Of a stretch of DNA of 14,831 nt, positions 2,251-14,831 are shown in pieces. Source of the stretch: a virus; UHGV virus genome UHGV-0322133, one strand, 5' to 3'. The position numbers were made by a program, and so were the translations under genes. Numbering within the stretch: the first letter of the stretch is position 1; each line of letters begins with the position of its first letter. The notes under the pieces were generated by a model that did not search any database, was not told where the DNA came from, and saw only the letters and a list, made by a program, of their open reading frames with translations.

Positions 2251-3687
2251 TCAGAATCCTCCTTTCTTCTTGGACTGCGGTTCCTCGCGTTCACGGCGGC
2301 GCATTTCAGCAGACTGTTGGTCTGTATCATAAATAGCGCCATTTGCCTGAATGCAATACACCGTGCCGGTATTGCCATGACGATTGAGACGAAGGATTAG
2401 TTCGGTTTCACCAGGTGGAACACTGTCATCAAAAGCACCTTCACGATGGATCCCCACCCAATAATCGCAATCCTGTTCAATCTGCCCTGTATCTCGCGAG
2501 TCACTTGGTAATGGGCGCTTATTGGTTCGGCTTTCCAGTGCGCGGTTAAGCTGCGTCAGAAGCACAACAACGCAATCAAGCTCTTTGGCAAGGTTCTTCA
2601 GTCCTTTGGTGATCATGCCGTAAGCAAGGTCGTTGCGATCGGCCTTCTCAGCGGTCATTAGTGTCAGGTAATCGACCAGAATCATGCCAACACATCCTTT
2701 TTCTCGCTTGATTCGACGACTTTCGCTGACGATTTGAGCCAGAGATAATCCCGGCGTGTCGTCGATGTAAAGCAGGTCGATTTCACTCAAGCGATTGGCT
2801 GTTTCGATCGCCCTGTTGAAGTCACCATCGTAATCACCCTGATAGCCGTCATCAGCGTCATTTGTCGCCGGAAGGTAAAAAATATTCGGGTTAACACCTG
2901 ACTTCTGTCCTACCAGTTTTTCCAGTATCTGGTCACCGGGCATTTCAAGGCTGAACATCAGAGCGGGCTTTTTCTCATGCACTGCGCAGTTGATTGCCAT
3001 CTGGCTGTATAGCGTCGTTTTCCCCATCTTAGGGCGAGCGCCAATGACAAACAGAGAGCCTTTCACCAGACCTTTCGGTGACAGCATCCTGTCCAGCGAT
3101 GGGATCCCTGTGCTCATTCCCCGTTGTTCGCCTGATGGGTCAAATCGCTTCTCAAGGTCGCTAACCCAGTCTTCCATGACCTCACCAAATGAACGAAGGC
3201 CGCGACGCGATCCGGTTTTTGCATGGTCTGTCAGTTGCGTGAAAATCGACTGAATAGCTTCGTACTTCTGCGTTGCAGTCATTCCGTTGCGGGAATAGAG
3301 CAATTCCGTCGCTTCAGTCATGCGGTTGATGGCGTAGCGTTCCATTGCGGTTTCACGAACCTGCATTGCATAGGCAACGATGTTTGCGGCGCTTGGCGTG
3401 TTCTTTGCGATCTCAGCGATATAAGCAAAACCGCCAACAGACGCCGTTAACGATTTACGCTCCAATTCATCGAAAAGCGTCAGGCCATCTACTGGCTTTT
3501 GCTCCCGGTGCATTCTGGTTATTTCTTCGAAAAGGATTTTGTGTGGCCGGCTGTAAAATGAGTCAGGCTTCAGCATCGCCAGAACTTTCTGGACGCGCTC
3601 ACTGCTGTCATCATCCAGAAGCAATCCACCAATCACCGCCTGCTCTGCCTCGATGCTATGGGGCGGCGCATAAAAATTATCGGTCAT
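2251..3687 (-). CDS. replicative DNA helicase, DnaB family (P22 gene 12-like)
   Basis: N-terminal DnaB signature MTDNFYAPPHSIEAEQAVIGGLLLD; Walker A GARPKMGKT; RBS GAGGGTG at internal ATG of ORF 2251..3702. Confidence 0.9.
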   Translation of the reverse strand: MTDNFYAPPHSIEAEQAVIGGLLLDDDSSERVQKVLAMLKPDSFYSRPHKILFEEITRMHREQKPVDGLTLFDELERKSLTASVGGFAYIAEIAKNTPSAANIVAYAMQVRETAMERYAINRMTEATELLYSRNGMTATQKYEAIQSIFTQLTDHAKTGSRRGLRSFGEVMEDWVSDLEKRFDPSGEQRGMSTGIPSLDRMLSPKGLVKGSLFVIGARPKMGKTTLYSQMAINCAVHEKKPALMFSLEMPGDQILEKLVGQKSGVNPNIFYLPATNDADDGYQGDYDGDFNRAIETANRLSEIDLLYIDDTPGLSLAQIVSESRRIKREKGCVGMILVDYLTLMTAEKADRNDLAYGMITKGLKNLAKELDCVVVLLTQLNRALESRTNKRPLPSDSRDTGQIEQDCDYWVGIHREGAFDDSVPPGETELILRLNRHGNTGTVYCIQANGAIYDTDQQSAEMRRREREEPQSKKKGGF

Positions 3688-4567
3688 CGTGTTCACCCTC
3701 ACGAACTTTCAGGTAGGTATTATCGTTAAGCAGGAAATCAAATCCCTTTTTGTGCCAGACAGTTCCGCGTTGATGGTTTGGGCGCTCTTCGAACATCCAT
3801 CGACAATTTTCGCCTACGTAGCTCAAATAATTTCTCCAGTCCTGCATCGAGAACCCATGCCCGTCAAGCTGGCGGGTTATCACTCCGGCTTTGCGCCAGA
3901 ACGTTCGGATCTGGTTTTTACGCTTGTCATTCAGTGCGCGGATTCTTGGAGCTTCAGGAAGGATTTCGTGGTAAGCATCGACAACATCCTGACAGCTAAC
4001 GGAAGGTTTTTTCTTGTCAGACTTTTTGTCTGCTGTGGCACTCTCTAATACGTCAGTATTAGAGATATTATTTATATTATTGTTTATGGACAACTGTTGG
4101 ACAACCGCTGGACAATCTCCGCTGAGAGCCGTGCCATTACTGGTGTTTGCGTTGGACAACCGTTGGACAACCGTTGGACAATTTTTTGACTGAAAATCGT
4201 CATATTTAACGATTGTAAACAGGCTAAATTTCTTCCCCATCGCGCAAATATTAAGCATCCCTTTCGACTCAAAAGTCCGTAATAAGCTCCGAACTTTGTT
4301 GTCGGGGATGAATGTTTCTCTGACCAGCGACGGGCGTCCAGTTATCATCTGACCGCGATCAACAGTTATCGGACCGATATCCGTATTGACGACAGTAGAT
4401 TCGTGATTAGCCTTGAGGATTAAGTGAAGCCAAAGATGTACTGCCTGAGAGTCCTTATAGAGCCTGCTGTCCATAAACTGGCGGTGTATAGAGACATACC
4501 CCATACTGGATGCCTCCTGATGTTGTACAGGGTTATGCCTGTAATCAGCTAACTTAACGACGCCCAT
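3677..4567 (-). CDS. replication initiation protein, lambda O / P22 gene 18 analogue
   Basis: Sits directly upstream of and overlapping the helicase gene; central part of the coding sequence contains the iteron array. Alternative start at 4504 (AGGAGG RBS) is equally plausible. Confidence 0.75.
   Translation of the reverse strand: MGVVKLADYRHNPVQHQEASSMGYVSIHRQFMDSRLYKDSQAVHLWLHLILKANHESTVVNTDIGPITVDRGQMITGRPSLVRETFIPDNKVRSLLRTFESKGMLNICAMGKKFSLFTIVKYDDFQSKNCPTVVQRLSNANTSNGTALSGDCPAVVQQLSINNNINNISNTDVLESATADKKSDKKKPSVSCQDVVDAYHEILPEAPRIRALNDKRKNQIRTFWRKAGVITRQLDGHGFSMQDWRNYLSYVGENCRWMFEERPNHQRGTVWHKKGFDFLLNDNTYLKVREGEHDDR
4086..4186. repeat. origin-of-replication iterons inside the initiator gene
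   Basis: Five or more copies of TGGACAAC(N)G in two clusters (4086..4118 and 4149..4186), flanked by AT-rich sequence at 4040..4085 and 4180..4210; ori-lambda-like arrangement. Confidence 0.7.
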
Positions 4568-5147: not shown

Positions 5148-6500
<1,353 letters not shown>

Positions 6501-6693: not shown

Positions 6694-6865
6694 AGCATTC
6701 AAAGCAGAAGGCTTTGGGGTGTGGTGAAGGGTTCATGGATGGGAATATGTCGCACGTAAAGCGGCGAGGCCTGCGGAACTATTGCCGAATTGAAGTCGGC
6801 CGAAGCAGGTCGAAATGGGTCTCCCACCTACCACACCACCAAAGCTAACTGACAGGAGAATCAAG

Positions 6866-7198
6866 ATGGATGCACAAACACGACGCCGCGAACGTCGCGC
6901 AGAGAAACAGGCTCAATGGAAAGCAGCAAATCCCCTGTTGGTTGGGGTAAGCGCAAAACCAGTTAACCGCCCTATTCTCTCGCTGAATCGCAAACCGAAA
7001 TCACGAGTAGAAAGCGCACTGAATCCGATAGACCTTACAGTACTGGCTGAATACCACGAACAGATTGAAAGCAACCTGCAACGTATTGAGCGCAAGAATC
7101 AGCGCACATGGTACAGCAAGCCACGCAGTGAAATGGGTGTGACTTGTTCAGGCCGCCAGAAACAACGCGGAAAATCAATTCCAGCTTATTACGATTGA
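6866..7198 (+). CDS. N: N antitermination protein, lambda type
   Basis: MDAQTRRRERRAEKQAQWKAANPLLVGVSAKPVNRPILSLNRKPKSRVESALNPIDLTVLAEYH matches recalled lambda N including the arginine-rich motif; RBS ACAGGAGA. Confidence 0.9.
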   Translation: MDAQTRRRERRAEKQAQWKAANPLLVGVSAKPVNRPILSLNRKPKSRVESALNPIDLTVLAEYHEQIESNLQRIERKNQRTWYSKPRSEMGVTCSGRQKQRGKSIPAYYD

Positions 7199-8429: not shown

Positions 8430-8741
8430 ATGATGATTCTGACTCTGAATGATAAGCGTGAAATATCGCAAATAATCGCAAGTTTTACTGATGAAGATTA
8501 CGAGCGAATCAACAGTGAAGTTGATCGCCTCTGCAAACGTTGCGACCCAATAAGCGAAATGCTTCGCTCATATAAACCAGATGAACACACTAAGGACGCT
8601 ATCGACTGGCTGGAAGATGATGACTGTAACTATCAGGAAAAAGCCGCTGAATGGTTCTGGGATGCAATAACCGAAAGAGTTAAGGCTGAATATGCCTTCG
8701 CAATATTCAAACGCAGACACATTTTTGGAGAAGCAGCATGA
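8430..8741 (+). CDS. hypothetical acidic protein at the gam position (103 aa)
   Basis: RBS AAGGAG; stop overlaps recT start (ATGA); acidic, no family recognised. Confidence 0.6.
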   Translation: MMILTLNDKREISQIIASFTDEDYERINSEVDRLCKRCDPISEMLRSYKPDEHTKDAIDWLEDDDCNYQEKAAEWFWDAITERVKAEYAFAIFKRRHIFGEAA

Positions 8742-9649
8742 GCAATATCGTTGAATTCGTTAAACAGCAGGAGCAGTTATTCTGCGGAGCATTGACTGAA
8801 CAGACGGTGACATGGGCTAAGGAAAGCCAGTTTGCAATTCAGTATTTCCAGAAAAACGATTACCTGGCTAAAACAGCACTGGCAAACCCAACCAGCGCAC
8901 AGAACGCCATCATCAATGTTGCGGCGATCGGTATCACCTTAAACCCGGCTAGCAAACTGGCTTATCTGGTTCCGCGCGACGGCATGGTGTGCCTTGATAT
9001 CAGTTATATGGGATTGCTCCATATTGCAATGGAGTCTGGTGTTATCTCATGGGGTCAGGCAAAACTTGTTCATGCTAACGATACCTATGAGTCAAACGGG
9101 CTTGATAAAGCACCAACCCATAAATACAACGCCTTCGGTGATCGTGGTGATATCGTTGGCGTTTACTGCACAGTTAAGACGCCAGCAGGTGATTATCTAA
9201 CGGAAGAGATGAGTCTGGCTGAAATTGAGGCTGTAAGGAAAACAAGCAAGGCGGCATTCAGCGATAAAGGACCATGGGTAAATCACTGGAATGAGATGGC
9301 GCGAAAGACGGTCGTAAAGCGTGCAAGCAAGTATTGGCCTAAGGCATCACGTCTTGATAGTGCTATTCACGTACTAAACGAAGAAGAAGGTGTGTGGACT
9401 GAACCAGTTATGCCGCACAAATCAGAGGAATATATCCGCGAAGATGAACGGAAACGCCAGCAGGAAATTATGGAAAAAGCACAACTTCTTTGTGATGAAA
9501 TGGCTCAGGCAGAAAACATGGATGATTTGAAGCGATATTTTGCAGAAGCATATCGCCTGACATCTGGAATGAAATTGCAGCAGAACGTACAAGCCATTTA
9601 CATAGAATGCAAAGCGAAACTGGAGGTTGCCAGTGAGCAAACTATATGA
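8738..9649 (+). CDS. recT: RecT-family single-strand annealing recombinase
   Basis: GPWVNHWNEMARKTVVKRASKYWP matches RecT core (GPWVTHWEEMAKKTAIRRLFKYLP in Rac RecT as recalled). Confidence 0.85.
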   Translation: MSNIVEFVKQQEQLFCGALTEQTVTWAKESQFAIQYFQKNDYLAKTALANPTSAQNAIINVAAIGITLNPASKLAYLVPRDGMVCLDISYMGLLHIAMESGVISWGQAKLVHANDTYESNGLDKAPTHKYNAFGDRGDIVGVYCTVKTPAGDYLTEEMSLAEIEAVRKTSKAAFSDKGPWVNHWNEMARKTVVKRASKYWPKASRLDSAIHVLNEEEGVWTEPVMPHKSEEYIREDERKRQQEIMEKAQLLCDEMAQAENMDDLKRYFAEAYRLTSGMKLQQNVQAIYIECKAKLEVASEQTI

Positions 9650-10115
9650 AATAGCCAATGAATACGCAAAATTGATGGATTCAGATTTAGAGCCAGAGAT
9701 GATTGCTGACACAATAGAAGGCATGGAAGGAGAATTTACCGATAAAATAGAGCAACTTCTTGCCATTATTAAAAATGAATCTGGTTATGCTGAACGCCTC
9801 AAGGACGAGGCAAAGTCACTAAATGAGCGAGCCGCAGTAATTCAAAATAAGATTGACAGCATTATGGCGTATATAGCGTCATCGCTTGAAATGGTTGGCA
9901 AGAAAAAGATTCGAGCAGGTATTCACCAGGTAACAATCCGCAAACCGTCAGAAACTGTAGAAATCATCGACTCAAGCGCCCTTCCTCCTGAATACGTTGA
10001 GTTTGAAACGACAATTAAAGCCGACAAACTGGCAATCAAACACCAACTAAAAGCAGGAATAAATATCCCCGGTGCTCAACTCAAAGTTGGGAAACCTTCA
10101 CTTCTTATCAAATAA
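9633..10115 (+). CDS. Gp157-like protein (siphovirus Gp157 family), recombination-module partner
   Basis: GTG start 6 nt after GGAGG (track start 9627 is TTG); VSKLYEIANEYAKLMD N-terminus and predicted coiled coil; directly follows recT. Confidence 0.6.
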   Translation: MSKLYEIANEYAKLMDSDLEPEMIADTIEGMEGEFTDKIEQLLAIIKNESGYAERLKDEAKSLNERAAVIQNKIDSIMAYIASSLEMVGKKKIRAGIHQVTIRKPSETVEIIDSSALPPEYVEFETTIKADKLAIKHQLKAGINIPGAQLKVGKPSLLIK

Positions 10116-10126
10116 CGGTATCGCCT

Positions 10127-10441
10127 ATGAAAAAGACTCCATGGGAGAAATGGGAAGTCGATTTCTTGCGCGAAGTGGCGGCGACAATGCCAGTTGAAGT
10201 TATCGCTGAAAAACTGGAAAGGACTGAAAAAGCAGTAATGGCGAAAGCAACAAGGATTGGCGCTGACATTGTTAGCCGACTTCGTGGAAGACGATGGACA
10301 AGAGCCGAAGTATCACTTTTCGGTAAGTTCTCCGCAGAAGAAATAGCAATTGCAACCTGCCGATCAATTTATTCAGTAAGAGCTATGCGATACAAGCTAA
10401 AAAAACTCGATGAAGAAAGAGCAGGCATACGAATAAATTAA
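10127..10441 (+). CDS. hypothetical protein with two internal W-x3-E...helix repeats (104 aa)
   Basis: Segments [26 protein letters not shown] and [24 protein letters not shown] look like a tandem duplication of a small helical motif. Confidence 0.6.
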
Positions 10442-10457
10442 CAAAGAGGAATTAATC

Positions 10458-10622
10458 ATGAGAGGACTTGCATACAATCCCGGCATTCTTCCGGCAGAAA
10501 TGATTATTCGCCAACGCGTAAAGCCAATGCCATCGAGAGAGGAATTGCTTAAAAGAAAGAGTTTCGGTTCTGTTAATGACAACAAATATCTGAATGCGAT
10601 GTGGCGGAGTGGGAAGAAATGA
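10458..10622 (+). CDS. small hypothetical protein (54 aa)
   Basis: Below the ORF-track cutoff. RBS AAGAGGA; stop overlaps next start (ATGA). Confidence 0.4.
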
Positions 10623-11038
10623 AGCAAATGACACTAATTGAGATGGATGGATTTCTGAAAGGTAAATGCATCCCACGAGATTTAAAGGTTAACGAAACAA
10701 ACGCTGAATATCTGGTGCGTAAATTTGCTGAAGCGGAGGCCAAGTGCGCGGCGCTGGCAGCGGAGAATGAGCTGGCTCGTAAAGCAGTTCAGGCATTCTG
10801 CGATGTTGTTGGCGACAACACAGAGGTTATCTGCGAGGAGGTTGGGAGAGATGGCGTTCTGGTTATTTTGGAGGCCATGAAGGCAACAGGAAATATGCCT
10901 GCCACCGATGCTTTCCTGGCTGAAGTACGGGCGCAGGGGGTAGAGATGATGCGCGAACATCCATCAATCAAACTTTGCTCTTTGACGCACATATGTGACG
11001 AGTTAGCCGCCCAGATTCGCAAAGGAGGCAACCAGTGA
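10619..11038 (+). CDS. hypothetical protein (139 aa)
   Basis: ATG at 10619 translationally coupled to the preceding small ORF; internal start of ORF 10601..11038. Confidence 0.6.
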
Positions 11039-11679
11039 GCAACCGTTTTTACATGATGTGCTCGCGTGAAACTGTGGGTAATAACGCTTCATTCCATTGC
11101 CATAACGGCAATGGTTACAGTTCTAATATCGATCGCGCTCATGTTTACACGCTGGAAGAAGCCCAAAAAGCCTGGAATTGTGGTCGAGATATCGATCAGC
11201 CTGTTTGCGCTGATAGCGTGGATGCAATGGCTGTGTGGCACGTTGATTGCCAGTACATCCCTACAGAAAGCCTGATTGAGCCAGATTGTACTGCGTATGT
11301 GGCCTACAAAAAAGGTAGCTGGAACGGCAACGATGTTTACTGGCTTCAACATGGTGGATTGCCAACAGATGACTTCAGTAAAGCGACCATCTTTAGCGTC
11401 GCCAACAAAAACGAACCAGGAATAGTTTGGTTGCCATTTTCCATTGCTGATGCAGCAAAGCGCCGGACGTTCAATATCAATAACTTTAACCGCAGAACAA
11501 TGGTTCAGGGCGCAGGTTTGGTCATGCCTGACTGGTTGAAAGAGCAGAACAGAAGAAAGAAGTCGCGAAGCGGGAAGGTGCGTTGGAATTGTCCGCATTG
11601 CGGAAAAATAACTTGGCAGTACAGCCCATATGATTTTGAAGGCTGTAGTGATTACAACTGTGAAGGATGGCGAGAATGA
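11035..11679 (+). CDS. hypothetical Cys/His-rich protein with C-terminal CxxC zinc-ribbon-like motif (214 aa)
   Basis: GTG start 6 nt after GGAGG, overlapping the previous stop; ...RWNCPHCGKITWQYSPYDFEGCSDYNCEGW. Confidence 0.6.
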   Translation: MSNRFYMMCSRETVGNNASFHCHNGNGYSSNIDRAHVYTLEEAQKAWNCGRDIDQPVCADSVDAMAVWHVDCQYIPTESLIEPDCTAYVAYKKGSWNGNDVYWLQHGGLPTDDFSKATIFSVANKNEPGIVWLPFSIADAAKRRTFNINNFNRRTMVQGAGLVMPDWLKEQNRRKKSRSGKVRWNCPHCGKITWQYSPYDFEGCSDYNCEGWRE

Positions 11680-12371
11680 CAATTGACTATCAGGTACTGC
11701 GTGAGGCGGCAGAACGTGCAATGCCGGCAATGGAACGCCTGTTAATGTTGCCAGCTGATGATGACTTGTTAAGTGAACAGGAACTTAAAGATTACGGTGT
11801 GGATATTGATGCGCTCAACGCCTTCAAATTTCTGACCGGACCAGAAACCGTGCTGGCACTGCTGGATGAACGGGAAAGAAACCTGCAATACATCAAAAGC
11901 CGCGATCAGGAGAACGAGGATATTGCGCTAACGGTAGGGAAGCTGCGCGTTGAGCTTGAAGCAGCAAAATCAAAACTCAACGAGCAGCGTGAGTATTACG
12001 AAGGTGTTATCTCGGATGGAAGTAAGCGTATTGCTGAACTGGAGAAAAGCGAAGAGCAACTCATTAACGAGCGTGACCATGCTGAGTCTGCTTTAGCTGA
12101 TATGTACTTTGCAGCAACCGGGGATAGGCCGGAGTGGAGTAACTGGTTCGGCTTTTCAAATGCCGTAGATGCCGTGGTTGACAGAATTGCTGATTTAGAA
12201 GCTAAACAGCCATCACCAGTAGTACCGGAAGGACTGGTTAAAGCAGTGTGCTTCTATGAACAGGTTAAGCGTGAAAATCCGCCAGTCGAAACCGGAGCAT
12301 GGAAAGACGCTGTTGACTGGGTTCTCGAAGAGGCTTGTCAGGCTGTAAACATTGGCATCAAAGGAGAGTGA
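11676..12371 (+). CDS. hypothetical coiled-coil protein (231 aa; possibly Ead/Ea22-like)
   Basis: ATG overlapping the previous stop (ATGA); central heptad-like region KLRVELEAAKSKLNEQREYYEG. Confidence 0.6.
   Translation: MTIDYQVLREAAERAMPAMERLLMLPADDDLLSEQELKDYGVDIDALNAFKFLTGPETVLALLDERERNLQYIKSRDQENEDIALTVGKLRVELEAAKSKLNEQREYYEGVISDGSKRIAELEKSEEQLINERDHAESALADMYFAATGDRPEWSNWFGFSNAVDAVVDRIADLEAKQPSPVVPEGLVKAVCFYEQVKRENPPVETGAWKDAVDWVLEEACQAVNIGIKGE
12355..12371 (+). repeat. 17-bp direct repeat GCATCAAAGGAGAGTGA, copy 1 (gene-junction linker)
   Basis: Identical to 12849..12865; spans the last codons of one gene and the RBS of the next. Confidence 0.8.
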
Positions 12372-12373
12372 GA

Positions 12374-12865
12374 ATGCAAATTTCACCGGTTACTCTTCGT
12401 GTTGCGAAGGCGTTTATATCCAGACATCACCGACACAATAAACCACCTGTTGGGCATAAATTCAGCATTGGTCTGAGAAATGATGCCGGAGAATTGATAG
12501 GTGTGGCGACAGCTGGTAGACCTGTTGCACGACATTTGGACGATGGATTAACACTTGAAGTAAATCGCACATGTACCACAGGAGAACGCAACGCTAACAG
12601 CGCGCTTTATGGTGCTGTCTGGCGGGCAGCAAAAGCTATGGGTTATCAACGTTGTATTACGTACACCCAGGCAGATGAATCAGGAGCATCTCTTCGCGCA
12701 GCTGGTTTTGTTCGTGTGAAAGAGCTTCCTCCAAGAAAAAGCTGGGCGGAATCAAGCGTCGCCCTGCGGAGTAAACGCGATCCGGTCGGAAACGGTGGTG
12801 TTCCTCGTGTGCTTTGGGAAATCAGGAGAATGAGTACCACTGGCATTCGCATCAAAGGAGAGTGA
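12374..12865 (+). CDS. hypothetical protein, possibly GNAT-like fold (163 aa)
   Basis: RBS AAAGGAG at internal ATG of ORF 12335..12865; bracketed by the 17-bp direct repeat. Confidence 0.6.
   Translation: MQISPVTLRVAKAFISRHHRHNKPPVGHKFSIGLRNDAGELIGVATAGRPVARHLDDGLTLEVNRTCTTGERNANSALYGAVWRAAKAMGYQRCITYTQADESGASLRAAGFVRVKELPPRKSWAESSVALRSKRDPVGNGGVPRVLWEIRRMSTTGIRIKGE
12849..12865 (+). repeat. 17-bp direct repeat GCATCAAAGGAGAGTGA, copy 2
   Basis: Identical to 12355..12371; extended match CATT(G/C)GCATCAAAGGAGAGTGA. Confidence 0.8.
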
Positions 12866-12866
12866 T

Positions 12867-13064
12867 ATGGATAAAAACACCACTGCTTACTGGAATCTGT
12901 CACTTGATACCGAATGCCCCAAATGCGGTCACAATTTCGATCTGCTTTGTGACGCTGATTTCTGGGAGTTTTCTGGAGCTAAACAGGCATGTGAAGAAAT
13001 AAAAGGTTACGAAACATGCTGTCCAGAATGTAACCATGAATTTAAAACAGATTTCGTGTATTGA
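12867..13064 (+). CDS. small zinc-ribbon protein (65 aa)
   Basis: CPKCGHN ... CCPECNH pairs of CxxC; RBS AAAGGAGAGTGAT. Confidence 0.6.
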   Translation: MDKNTTAYWNLSLDTECPKCGHNFDLLCDADFWEFSGAKQACEEIKGYETCCPECNHEFKTDFVY

Positions 13065-13074
13065 GGCATAACAA

Positions 13075-13707
13075 ATGACCACTATTACCAGAGAACAGGC
13101 GCAGAAAATTATTGAAGCAGCCGATGAGGTTATTAGTGCGCTTGCCGGAACTAACGAGGATGTTCACCCTGGTAGCGATAACATGCTACGTCTGTGGGAT
13201 GACCTGAATGACCGTTACGCGCCCCCGGAAGTTGTGCGTGAGCTGGCACGAATTGCACTGGCATCACTGGAAGCAGAGCCTGTAAGCCAAACTTACAACT
13301 TGCCAGAATTAATCGAAGGCATGGAGGTTTCCATTGATGTAAGCACTTGTGATGCGGATTTAGGTAATCGCTATTTCGGTACCGTAACCGAGGCGTTAGA
13401 ACTTGATACAGCCAAGAATGGTTACATCCTCCTAGTTCAGGACGCAGAGCCAAACTTCGATATAAATGGCAACTCTCCGGTAATTCCGGATGGTTGGATA
13501 AGCTGTAGTGAGCGAATGCCGAAAAAGAATCAGAACGTACTTATTTCGGTGAATTTCGATAGTGATCTGGTTGAGCCGCTAATATGCTCCGCACGCTATA
13601 CCGGAAGTACCTTTCGGCGAGGACAAGCAACGATTAAGCCGGGTAATGGTATTGAGCAGGCAACTCACTGGATGCCGCTACCGGAACCGCCGCAGGAGGT
13701 AAAATGA
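13075..13707 (+). CDS. hypothetical protein with C-terminal DUF551-like domain (210 aa)
   Basis: C-terminal segment WISCSERMPKKNQNVLI...ATHWMPLPEPP resembles DUF551 as recalled. Confidence 0.6.
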   Translation: MTTITREQAQKIIEAADEVISALAGTNEDVHPGSDNMLRLWDDLNDRYAPPEVVRELARIALASLEAEPVSQTYNLPELIEGMEVSIDVSTCDADLGNRYFGTVTEALELDTAKNGYILLVQDAEPNFDINGNSPVIPDGWISCSERMPKKNQNVLISVNFDSDLVEPLICSARYTGSTFRRGQATIKPGNGIEQATHWMPLPEPPQEVK

Positions 13708-13964
13708 TGGATGTAAAAGAGAAGGTTTTGCAGGTGATGCGTTCCCGTGCTGCCCTGCAAGAGAAAGCTCTCGGCGGGGAATATCCATTCACGATAGCAA
13801 CCTGGAATCTGCGGTTGGCAATGGAGAAGGAATTTCCTGATGAAGAATGGCGTTCGGCAGATTTGCGCAAAATTCTTATGGAGCTGGCTAAAGACGGAGC
13901 AGTATCCAAAGATACCTATGCCAGCCGGATTGGTCAGGCGGTATGGAGACTGGAGGTGCGGTAA
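13704..13964 (+). CDS. hypothetical protein (86 aa)
   Basis: RBS GGAGGTAAA; start overlaps the previous stop (ATGA). Confidence 0.6.
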   Translation: MMDVKEKVLQVMRSRAALQEKALGGEYPFTIATWNLRLAMEKEFPDEEWRSADLRKILMELAKDGAVSKDTYASRIGQAVWRLEVR

Positions 13965-14003
13965 TGGCTAACCTGCAACTTGCCGTCAAAGGTGAATAAC
14001 AAT

Positions 14004-14030
14004 CCTCGCACTCGCGGGGATTTCTTTTAT
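14004..14030 (+). terminator. candidate rho-independent terminator, first of a tandem pair
   Basis: Stem CCTCGC/GCGGGG (one G-U pair) followed by ATTTCTTTTA. Confidence 0.4.
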
Positions 14031-14034
14031 CTGA

Positions 14035-14059
14035 ACTCGCTACGGCGAGTTTTGTTTTA
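14035..14059 (+). terminator. rho-independent terminator
   Basis: Stem ACTCGC/GCGAGT with loop TACG followed by TTTGTTTTA. Confidence 0.55.
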
Positions 14060-14070
14060 TGGAGATGATT

Positions 14071-14370
14071 ATGGCCTGTTCAACATTCAACCCTTTAACG
14101 TTACAGAAATACCAGCCAGACCCTGAAGATTTATGCTCACTGTGTGGAGTAAATCATGGTAAAGCCGCCATGATCGAATGTAAGGACAAAATCCACATTT
14201 GCCTTAATTGCGTTGATGTCCTCGTTGATATCAAAAATGAGAGAGAAGATAAAAAGCGTAACGAGGCTATTCGCGCATTAGATTCATGGATGCGAGATGG
14301 GTATAGTGCTGCGCAAATTTATGACTTAGCAATATCAAAAGGCGAAATACCAGGTGTGCGAATCGAATAA
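14071..14370 (+). CDS. hypothetical protein with CxxC...CxxC motif (99 aa)
   Basis: GGAG RBS 6 nt upstream of the ATG at 14071; CSLCGVNHG...CLNCVD. Confidence 0.5.
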   Translation: MACSTFNPLTLQKYQPDPEDLCSLCGVNHGKAAMIECKDKIHICLNCVDVLVDIKNEREDKKRNEAIRALDSWMRDGYSAAQIYDLAISKGEIPGVRIE

Positions 14371-14405
14371 GAAGCGCACTCAAGCATCTTTTGGAGAAAT
14401 CACTA

Positions 14406-14573
14406 ATGCACTTCCGAGTCACAGGTGAATGGAATGGAGAACCATTCAACAGAGTTATCGAAGCAGAGAACATCAACGACTGCTATGACCACTGGATGAT
14501 ATGGGCGCAGATAGCACATGCAGACGTAACCAATATTTGTATTGAAGAACTGAAAGAACACCAAGCCGCCTGA
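14406..14573 (+). CDS. small hypothetical protein (55 aa)
   Basis: RBS GGAGAAA before internal ATG of ORF 14391..14573; followed by a terminator. Confidence 0.4.
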   Translation: MHFRVTGEWNGEPFNRVIEAENINDCYDHWMIWAQIAHADVTNICIEELKEHQAA

Positions 14574-14588
14574 TGGCGGTTTTTTATT
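14565..14588 (+). terminator. rho-independent terminator
   Basis: Stem GCCGCC/GGCGGT with loop TGAT (containing the stop codon) followed by TTTTTTATT. Confidence 0.55.
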
Positions 14589-14630
14589 GCCTGATTTGCA
14601 GGTTCGATTCCCTATTCGGAGATAGCACTC

Positions 14631-14831
14631 ATGCAACACGAACTACAACCTGATTCACTGGTTGATTTGAAATTCATCATGGCTGATACTGGCTTCGGTA
14701 AAACCTTCATCTATGACCGGATTAAGTCCGGCGACCTGCCAAAAGCCAAAGTTATCCACGGGCGAGCAAGATGGTTATATCGTGACCATTGTGAATTCAA
14801 AAATAAGCTCTTAAGCCGCGCCAATGGGTAA
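14631..14831 (+). CDS. AlpA/Xis-family small DNA-binding protein (putative excisionase or regulator)
   Basis: 66-aa product with HTH-like segment LVDLKFIMADTGFGKTFIYDRIKSGDLPKA; RBS GGAGA; sits at the int-proximal end of the PL operon. Confidence 0.55.
   Translation: MQHELQPDSLVDLKFIMADTGFGKTFIYDRIKSGDLPKAKVIHGRARWLYRDHCEFKNKLLSRANG

Follow-up and report, generated by a model that had tools for sequence, protein, structure and literature searches.

Why does a single accessory gene of a lambdoid prophage lie between two identical copies of a short sequence, and how did it come to be there? The question arises in the UHGV virus genome UHGV-0322133, of which we analysed a stretch of 14,831 nucleotides (nt), here called the window, which covers the immunity and early-left region of a lambdoid prophage of E. 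coli. The 17-bp sequence GCATCAAAGGAGAGTGA occurs exactly on the + strand of the window at 12355-12371 and again at 12849-12865, as direct repeats 494 bp apart, and the only open reading frame (ORF) between the copies (12374-12865, 163 residues) encodes a protein of the XF1762 family. A preliminary description of this DNA had noted a perfect repeat at both gene junctions, covering the C-terminal IKGE codons of one gene together with the ribosome-binding site of the next and flanking exactly one ORF, and our analysis confirms these observations. The best explanation, which we regard as highly probable, is that a conserved boundary sequence of the exo-xis region provides short homology at which recombination exchanges genes as cassettes.

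Each repeat copy takes in the end of one gene, with its final codons (..IKGE) and its TGA stop, and contains the Shine-Dalgarno (SD) sequence AAGGAG, which lies 6-7 nt 5' of the next ATG (at 12374 and 12867, respectively). The left copy is part of a longer unit on the + strand, AACATTGGCATCAAAGGAGAGTGA (12348..12371), which encodes ..NIGIKGE* and forms the 3' end of an Ea22-like gene; its AAGGAG at 12361-12366 serves the ATG at 12374. The corresponding unit on the right, GGCATTCGCATCAAAGGAGAGTGA (12842..12865, + strand), encodes ..GIRIKGE*, forms the 3' end of the XF1762 gene and carries the SD sequence for the ATG at 12867. We refer to the right-hand unit as the canonical linker A and to the left-hand one as its variant A'. 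Note that the program-made ORF list gives a TTG start at 12335; the SD sequence instead belongs to the ATG at 12374. No third match to GCATCAAAGGAGAGTGA was found in the window with up to 3 mismatches allowed, and two matches were obtained in 0 of 200 dinucleotide-preserving shuffles of the window (mean 0.06). Extended to the left, the repeat reads CATT[G/C]GCATCAAAGGAGAGTGA with an identity of 21/22 (repeat family D3), and is the longest dispersed direct repeat of the window, the iteron array of the replication origin excepted.

To what extent is this sequence a property of other phages? The exact 17-mer was found in at least 120 viral contigs of IMG/VR. This sample was chosen by the exact 17-mer, and conservation figures drawn from it are therefore biased; all IMG/VR figures for the linker are lower bounds and refer to the matches listed. 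Most contigs contained a single copy. Several had two copies 494 bp apart, representing the same cassette, and one had two copies 843 bp apart, representing another cassette. In the related loci the 17-mer consistently formed the end of an ORF, with a start codon within 1-3 nt after it. When the flanking proteins were clustered, 15 kinds of upstream C-terminus and 22 kinds of downstream gene were distinguished, in 57 combinations; nucleotide-level clustering of a larger set gave 17 left and 24 right contexts in 70 combinations. Variant A' (NIGIKGE) occurred 12 times in related loci, where 7 or more different genes came after it. When different partners were compared, the sequence was exactly identical to the left of the 17-mer for only 7-11 nt (16 at the maximum, ..GCTGGCATTC) and to the right for about 4 nt (T/GATG). 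With identity reaching no further than ~10 nt to the left and ~4 nt to the right, the element is an island of ~24-31 nt, (GCT)GGC ATT CGC ATC AAA GGA GAG TGA N ATG, which holds the last codons of the upstream gene (GIRIKGE), its stop, and the SD sequence and start of the next gene. The repeat thus marks mosaic breakpoints in well over 100 related phage contigs. Frequent occurrence of the repeat genome-wide had been put forward as an observation that would speak against a cassette. Within the window the repeat is not frequent (2 copies). Across lambdoid phages it is very frequent at one type of junction, and this does not count against a cassette, because a linker predicts exactly that.

The island is also present in classical lambdoid phages. 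An exact 24-mer match forms the 3' end of lambda ea22 (NC_001416, 29847-29870) and the 3' end of the Ea22-like gene hkaG of HK620 (2794-2817), at the hkaG/hkaF junction. P22 was searched for the 24-mer with up to 5 mismatches, and no match was found. The identification of the linker as the ea22 3' end, lambda ea22 included, goes beyond the preliminary description, as does the proposal that the enclosed gene acquired a copy of it. A literature text search for the linker peptide or nucleotide motif found no paper. In lambda, the sequence past the ea22 linker (NC_001416 ~29830-29847, L126) is GATCGGTTTTGTAAAAGATAACGC, and in related phages it is TATGAGCAGGAATACGGGTTTGTAAAAGATAACGC (L035 and L062 compared with L019, L043, L088 and L120); a small deletion in lambda seems to have removed the start of the gene that normally lies 3' of ea22. 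The 24-mer was also found in assemblies assigned to Streptomyces, Bacillus, Streptococcus, Prevotella, Shewanella, Pseudomonas and other genera (loci L127-L164), on ~1-kb low-coverage contigs or on contigs of ~48.4-48.5 kb. This suggests that the non-enterobacterial matches are mostly contamination with phage-lambda DNA, and the taxonomic range given by the genome-contig scan is therefore largely uninformative. Genuine linker hosts appear to be limited to Escherichia, Shimwellia and Phytobacter.

To correct for the selection bias, 80 loci were fetched via the N-terminal part of Ea22 rather than via the linker, a correction that holds for ea22 genes only; the end of the gene was readable in 60 of them. 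In this unbiased sample the exact 17-mer ended 39 of 60 Ea22-family genes, recognisable linker variants ended 17 (for example GIRIKGGE*, ADIRIKGE* with a synonymous CGT, and AGIKVKGE*), and something unrelated ended 4. In more distant variants (AGIKVKGE, VKVSIKGN) the pattern of peptide and SD sequence was kept while the nucleotides differed. As the 3' end of ea22-family genes the linker is near-universal, whatever C-terminal domain an allele has. Many of the upstream proteins at the linker are Ea22 alleles with a common coiled-coil core and unrelated C-terminal domains, in agreement with the description of such alleles in the literature (PMC10834534; PMC7093339). The reading that 15 unrelated protein families share the tail was accordingly too strong, many of them being Ea22-family alleles with differing C-terminal domains. 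Carriers unrelated to Ea22 do exist: the XF1762 protein, an HNH_3/AP2 protein, a holin-like membrane protein and several proteins without a Pfam match.

All Ea22 proteins have been reported to end in a '+GE' tripeptide, whose significance was given as unknown (Dydecka et al. 2020, PMC7093339). Our analysis suggests that this tripeptide corresponds to AAA GGA GAG, the SD sequence of the downstream gene within the linker, read in frame. The motif is the protein-level view of the linker, in that the K/R-G-E end is retained despite unrelated C-terminal domains. In contrast to that earlier description, the linker is defined here at the nucleotide level, over ~24-31 nt, and it is also carried by non-Ea22 genes, which therefore favours an explanation of '+GE' at the level of DNA or RNA rather than of protein. 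Accounting for this C-terminal motif as the linker and SD sequence read in frame is a modest new point.

If the XF1762 gene is a cassette, genomes should exist in which its neighbours are adjacent with a single copy of the repeat, as the preliminary description had anticipated. A synthetic cassette-less query, consisting of the left flank, one repeat and the right flank, was searched against complete E. coli genomes. E. coli KFu019 matched this query in one unbroken piece across the junction; it encodes a 119-residue protein with the same C-terminal module as the Ea22-like protein of the window, followed directly by the same 65-residue gene that stands downstream of XF1762. Positions 12209-12371 of the window align with 2482-2644 of the KFu019 locus (L121) and positions 12844-13094 with 2623-2873, so that the two alignments overlap only on a single 22-bp copy of the linker. 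A three-way alignment shows the KFu019 junction to be exactly the hybrid that a crossover inside the 17-mer should produce. E. coli genomes that matched only one flank broke off at the same place: right-flank-only matches start at query positions 280-290 and left-flank-only matches end at 305-306, with the linker at 285-301. A second empty site, L056, corresponds to the commoner arrangement Ea22-XF1762-D1 (U1-XF1762-D1). To the right of XF1762 at least 5 different genes were found, and the 65-residue gene is in turn joined via the same linker to a different upstream gene in other phages (L031, L114). The proposal that a cassette was gained or exchanged at a conserved linker is thus supported by the cassette-less loci of KFu019 and L056 and by the breakpoints in the related contigs.

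Two side observations concern the same loci. At 1469-1485 of the KFu019 locus a linker variant, GCATCAAAGGAGAGGAG, has lost the stop codon, and the upstream ORF runs on through the junction, a case of linker decay or gene fusion; two similar cases were seen in related loci. The XF1762 cassette with both linkers and ~160 nt of the Ea22 module was also found on E. coli plasmids of ~56-61 kb (for example L122, p07_3337-3, NZ_CP074935.1, 2215-3160), which are probably phage-plasmids; window positions 12211-12870 align with 2501-3160 of L122. On these plasmids the upstream Ea22-like gene is degraded, with one annotated pseudogene and an unannotated remnant, and in strain E423 the XF1762 gene itself is frameshifted.

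We also analysed the enclosed protein. It matches the NCBIfam equivalog model NF045478 ('XF1762 family') over residues 3-136 with 204.7 bits (cutoff 50), and its homologs bear the RefSeq name 'XF1762 family protein'. The family comprises 3,313 clusters at 50% identity; no paper naming 'XF1762' was found in a literature text search. The earlier suggestion of a possibly GNAT-like protein proved correct: a GNAT fold is present in the predicted structure, with a mixed beta-sheet and a beta4-alpha3 and beta5-alpha4 core. The AlphaFold model has a predicted local distance difference test score (pLDDT) of 83 and a predicted template modelling score (pTM) of 0.76, and residues 155-163 are the sole segment with a pLDDT below 50. 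This segment corresponds to the tail encoded by the linker. The family core ends in ..RVLWEIR at about residue 151, and most homologs stop 2-3 residues later or have other tails; in the best 150 of the 3,313 clusters of the family, most matches reach no further than residue ~155. The E. coli version from the ea region has the tail ..MSTTGIRIKGE (residues ~153-163), which in the model is an unstructured appendage outside the predicted fold. Such a tail, outside the fold and foreign to the family core, agrees with the view that the XF1762 gene took over a 3' end of the ea22 type. Some of the homologs from prophages of Klebsiella, Salmonella and Enterobacter (P0006, P0021, P0033, P0034) have different but related tails (AAGIKVEVK, AAGIQVIEGEDGE and TTAGIKLQIEGE), which hints that other enterobacterial lambdoid phages may use linker versions of their own.

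The relationship of this protein to Mom, the DNA modification enzyme of phage Mu, deserves comment. The protein is included in phrog_1384 ('Mom-like DNA modification protein'), and in a fold comparison phage Mu Mom (PDB 8BV8) ranked at or near the top among solved structures. The score for the Pfam family Mom (PF25680) was 22.4 bits, below the cutoff of 27.1 and covering only profile positions 3-124 of 202; some homologs of ~85% identity carry a precomputed PF25680 match, making Mom membership borderline. Mom moves glycine from Gly-tRNA to adenine N6 in DNA and needs R111, S124 and a helix-turn-helix (HTH)-like insertion at residues ~175-209 (PMC13219725). A search of the family profile against PDB sequences did not find 8BV8. 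In a weak hhalign alignment (E 0.021, probability 2%), the family-invariant R65 (EVNR) stands opposite Mom R111 (ELNR), and Mom S124 stands opposite L78, with the near-invariant S76 two residues off. We therefore rejected a link to Mom at the sequence level; it is only in the fold comparison that Mom comes out at or near the top. The protein differs from Mom (8BV8; Silva et al. 2026, PMC13219725) in several respects: identity is only ~11%, the length is 163 compared with 241 residues, the HTH-like insertion has at most a shortened counterpart, and the gene is located in an early-left operon without a com-like regulator, not in a late position. On the basis of the predicted structure, the XF1762 protein is best described as a Mom-related GNAT, not a Mom. 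The analysis draws attention to the XF1762 family, a widespread and unstudied group related to Mom, whose gene travels in cassette form in prophages and phage-plasmids of E. coli.

Linker A is not the only connector of this kind. An unbiased k-mer scan of the fetched loci identified a second sequence, linker B, located in the window at 11019..11038 (+ strand; GCAAAGGAGGCAACCAGTGA), where a GTGA stop/start overlap joins the ORFs 10601-11038 and 11035-11679. Of 201 related loci, 112 contained exact copies of linker B, 120 in all; 19 left and 19 right contexts were distinguished, in 49 combinations, and in HK620 it occurs at the hkaH/hkaG junction with 1 mismatch. It lies mostly 5' of ea22, and ea22 is therefore typically bracketed, by B at its 5' end and by A at its 3' end. 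That linker B behaves likewise at another junction supports the exchange model. A variant of linker B with 84% identity, GGAGGTTGCCAGTGAGCAA, is found at the RecT/Gp157 junction (9622-9640).

How might these arrangements have arisen? The linker is a gene-junction boundary sequence, conserved within the exo-xis ('ea') region in phages of the lambdoid and P22-like groups, and the sequence on either side of it varies from phage to phage. In the mechanism that we propose, its copies would recombine homologously between co-resident phages or prophages and, because the flanks differ, whole genes would be swapped, inserted or deleted. Reading frames and translation initiation would remain undisturbed because the linker carries the stop, the SD sequence and the start. 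With the ea22-like gene ending in one copy, and the XF1762 gene, having presumably acquired a copy of the ea22-type 3' end, in a second, the XF1762 cassette is bracketed by direct repeats and would also be deletable by recombination between them. The catalyst would most plausibly be the phage's own annealing recombinase, RecT, whose gene belongs to the same operon and lies 2.7 kb upstream. Recombinases of the RecT type work efficiently where homology is short or diverged, and generate mosaics; Red-beta needs a segment of at least 23-27 bp for efficient pairing, as compared with 31-34 bp for RecA (PMC3945230); the length of the linker (~24-31 nt) matches the value for Red-beta. Recombination within the linker itself is inferred from the positions of the breakpoints and from the length of the minimal pairing segment; the choice of RecT as the recombinase and the direction of the events, insertion or deletion, are inferences as well.

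Several points weigh against this interpretation. The recombination events are deduced from breakpoints in sequence comparisons, not from direct observation. The flanks of the KFu019 empty site are only 92.6-96% identical to those of the window, so that KFu019 is not a recent derivative of this exact prophage. To the left of XF1762 there is always the same Ea22 C-terminal module of ~160 nt (elsewhere this module precedes at least 7 other genes), and some crossovers could lie in such longer flanking homology. Conservation of the linker may also partly reflect selection on translation or on the peptide instead of recombination, because the distant variants keep the peptide and SD pattern while their nucleotides differ.

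This last point leads to the alternative that survives best, namely that the linker is conserved mainly as a translation signal (SD sequence and stop-start coupling), as a functional C-terminal peptide, or as both, with recombination incidental. The placement of AAGGAG 6-7 nt 5' of the next start at both copies agrees with such a role, as does the finding that the linker region is less structured than shuffled controls, which is expected for an accessible ribosome-binding site. Diverged variants keep [IV]-x-[IV]-K-G-E together with a purine-rich SD sequence while the nucleotides change, and a function of the peptide would fit the conservation of '+GE' in all Ea22 proteins (PMC7093339). However, about 6 nt would suffice for a translation signal, whereas here 24-28 nt are identical at synonymous sites on unrelated C-termini and on non-Ea22 proteins as well. 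The tail of XF1762 is predicted to be disordered and outside the fold, which speaks against a peptide function, and the occurrence of the same nucleotides on unrelated genes requires identity by descent spread via recombination. Selection on translation or peptide probably contributes to keeping the sequence; it explains maintenance, not spread, and is compatible with cassette exchange. As the main explanation we consider it possible but unlikely.

Next in order is illegitimate recombination combined with selection for intact genes (the Hendrix model). Here the shared tail would result from common descent and one ancient fusion onto XF1762, and later shuffling would have occurred via longer homologies elsewhere. 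The invariable presence of the same Ea22 C-terminal module to the left of XF1762 would be accounted for, other breakpoints in the locus are intragenic and without a linker (for example at ~12209), and many mosaic joints are known that have no conserved boundary sequences (PMC3233612). Against this, 57-70 left/right combinations are grouped around one island of 24-31 nt, and homology ceases within ~10 nt on either side of it; joints made at random would not keep recreating the same junction nucleotides, and the empty site is a precise single-copy hybrid. We judge this model to be very improbable for the present locus.

Two further explanations can be dismissed briefly, each having a negligible probability. 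Two direct copies 494 bp apart around a single gene could be read as a local duplication, either partial, as the preliminary description had allowed, or tandem, or as the target-site duplication of a transposon. However, a single intact gene takes up all of the DNA in between, and it belongs to a large independent family in which members found elsewhere have no such tail; neither a transposase nor terminal inverted repeats were found in the protein annotation and repeat scan of the window, 17-22 bp is too long for a typical target-site duplication, and both versions are effectively refuted by the single copies seen in lambda, in HK620 and at other junctions, which number well over 100. A dedicated site-specific recombination site (integron attC-like) or a classical moron with its own promoter and terminator would share with this locus the functional resemblance to an array of exchangeable single-gene cassettes, but an attC site was rejected, as potential to form a hairpin or inverted repeat was found on neither strand of the linker (z +0.55 to +1.19, less structured than shuffles) and no integron integrase is among the annotated proteins of the window; a moron was likewise rejected, as neither a promoter-like nor a terminator-like site flanks the cassette and its GC content (0.47-0.50, compared with 0.44-0.50 in the flanks) shows no anomaly. 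The sole terminator-like match lies inside the ORF (12394-12410) and is within chance expectation. A structured RNA element was rejected as well, since the Rfam search of the window returned no match.

Cassette exchange at the linkers can be extended into a more speculative view, which we offer only tentatively and consider rather unlikely as a whole. Linkers A and B would be position-specific 'standard connectors' that make the exo-xis region an integrase-free cassette array; they would be kept identical by second-order selection for evolvability, that is, for easier exchange of accessory genes via the phages' own annealing recombinases, and '+GE' would be only the in-frame footprint of this process. 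As a corollary, the XF1762 family could be an early-expressed, Mom-like, nucleic-acid-modifying GNAT traded as an anti-restriction cassette.

The remaining genes of the window fit the setting described. On the - strand are a DnaB-like helicase gene and an O-like gene with the iterons of the replication origin. The iterons, 11 bp long and of the TGGACAACCGT type, form two groups at 4087-4193 inside the - strand ORF 3677-4567, which is located just upstream of the DnaB-like helicase gene; the most likely identity of the array is that of the lambdoid origin of replication, located within the O-like initiator gene. The + strand carries the genes for the CI repressor (5467-6099) and N (6815-7198) and, in the same early-left region, the RecT-family single-strand annealing recombinase (8738..9649; Pfam PF03837, E 3e-32), followed by Gp157 and then small 'ea' genes. 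The Ead/Ea22-like gene (11667..12371, + strand, 234 residues; Pfam PF13935, E 1.4e-34), which ends in linker A', consists of a coiled-coil N-terminal part and the C-terminal module, and its PHROG matches are split accordingly (residues 4-183 and 146-234). The module (12209..12371, + strand) is itself a mosaic block: the homology with KFu019, the ~56-61 kb plasmids and many prophages starts there, and the matches begin at query positions 210-232. Next come the XF1762-family cassette (12374..12865, + strand), the gene for a 65-residue CxxC..CxxC zinc-ribbon-like protein (12867..13064, + strand; phrog_4173) and a gene for a DUF551 protein.

The exact arrangement of the window was found in 0 of 5,426 complete E. 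coli genomes, parts of it being present in 1,181, and in none of the 5,426 was at least 80% of positions 9000-14831 covered. At least 80% of positions 12000-13250 was covered by one genome only, in which two extra genes are inserted after XF1762. The junction of XF1762 with the zinc-ribbon gene, as seen in the window, appears to be rare.

We finally compared the locus with known systems. Integron gene cassettes (attC x attI) resemble it in operation: each is a single gene without a promoter of its own, is exchanged at a junction element that recurs, and owes its expression to a promoter further upstream. In contrast to integrons, there is no attC hairpin, integron integrase or site-specific chemistry here, and exchange would be homologous. 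The Rad52-like recombinases of phages (Red-beta, RecT, Erf) provide a closer parallel, because they act on short or diverged homology and give rise to phage-prophage mosaics (Martinsohn 2008, PMC2327257; De Paepe 2014, PMC3945230). The homologies in those studies, however, were hundreds of bp long with internal stretches of identity, unlike the isolated island of ~24-31 bp described here.

The closest precedent is the boundary-sequence, or modular, model of lambdoid phages (Susskind & Botstein 1978; Clark et al. 2001 on HK620; as summarised in PMC3233612, PMC2327257 and PMC3528268). As presented in these summaries, boundary sequences are short, conserved, located at gene borders with non-homologous genes on either side, present in a subset of related phages, and proposed to be sites of homologous recombination at which modules are reassorted. 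The linker likewise lies at gene borders between unrelated flanks, is shared with classical lambdoid phages and occurs in variants with and without the module; HK620 itself carries both the exact 24-mer (hkaG/hkaF) and linker B (hkaH/hkaG). Relative to the work of Clark et al. as rendered in the later summaries, the locus differs in that the linker is the in-frame 3' end of ea22 and that two copies bracket a single accessory gene. These results bear on the old debate of whether mosaic joints arise by homologous recombination at boundary sequences or by illegitimate recombination followed by selection. For the exo-xis region, a part of the genome known for its high degree of mosaicism, the dozens of partner combinations, the exact empty site and the length match favour the model of boundary sequences. 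The locus is an instance of an already known mechanism of mosaicism, and leaves the known lambdoid picture unchanged.

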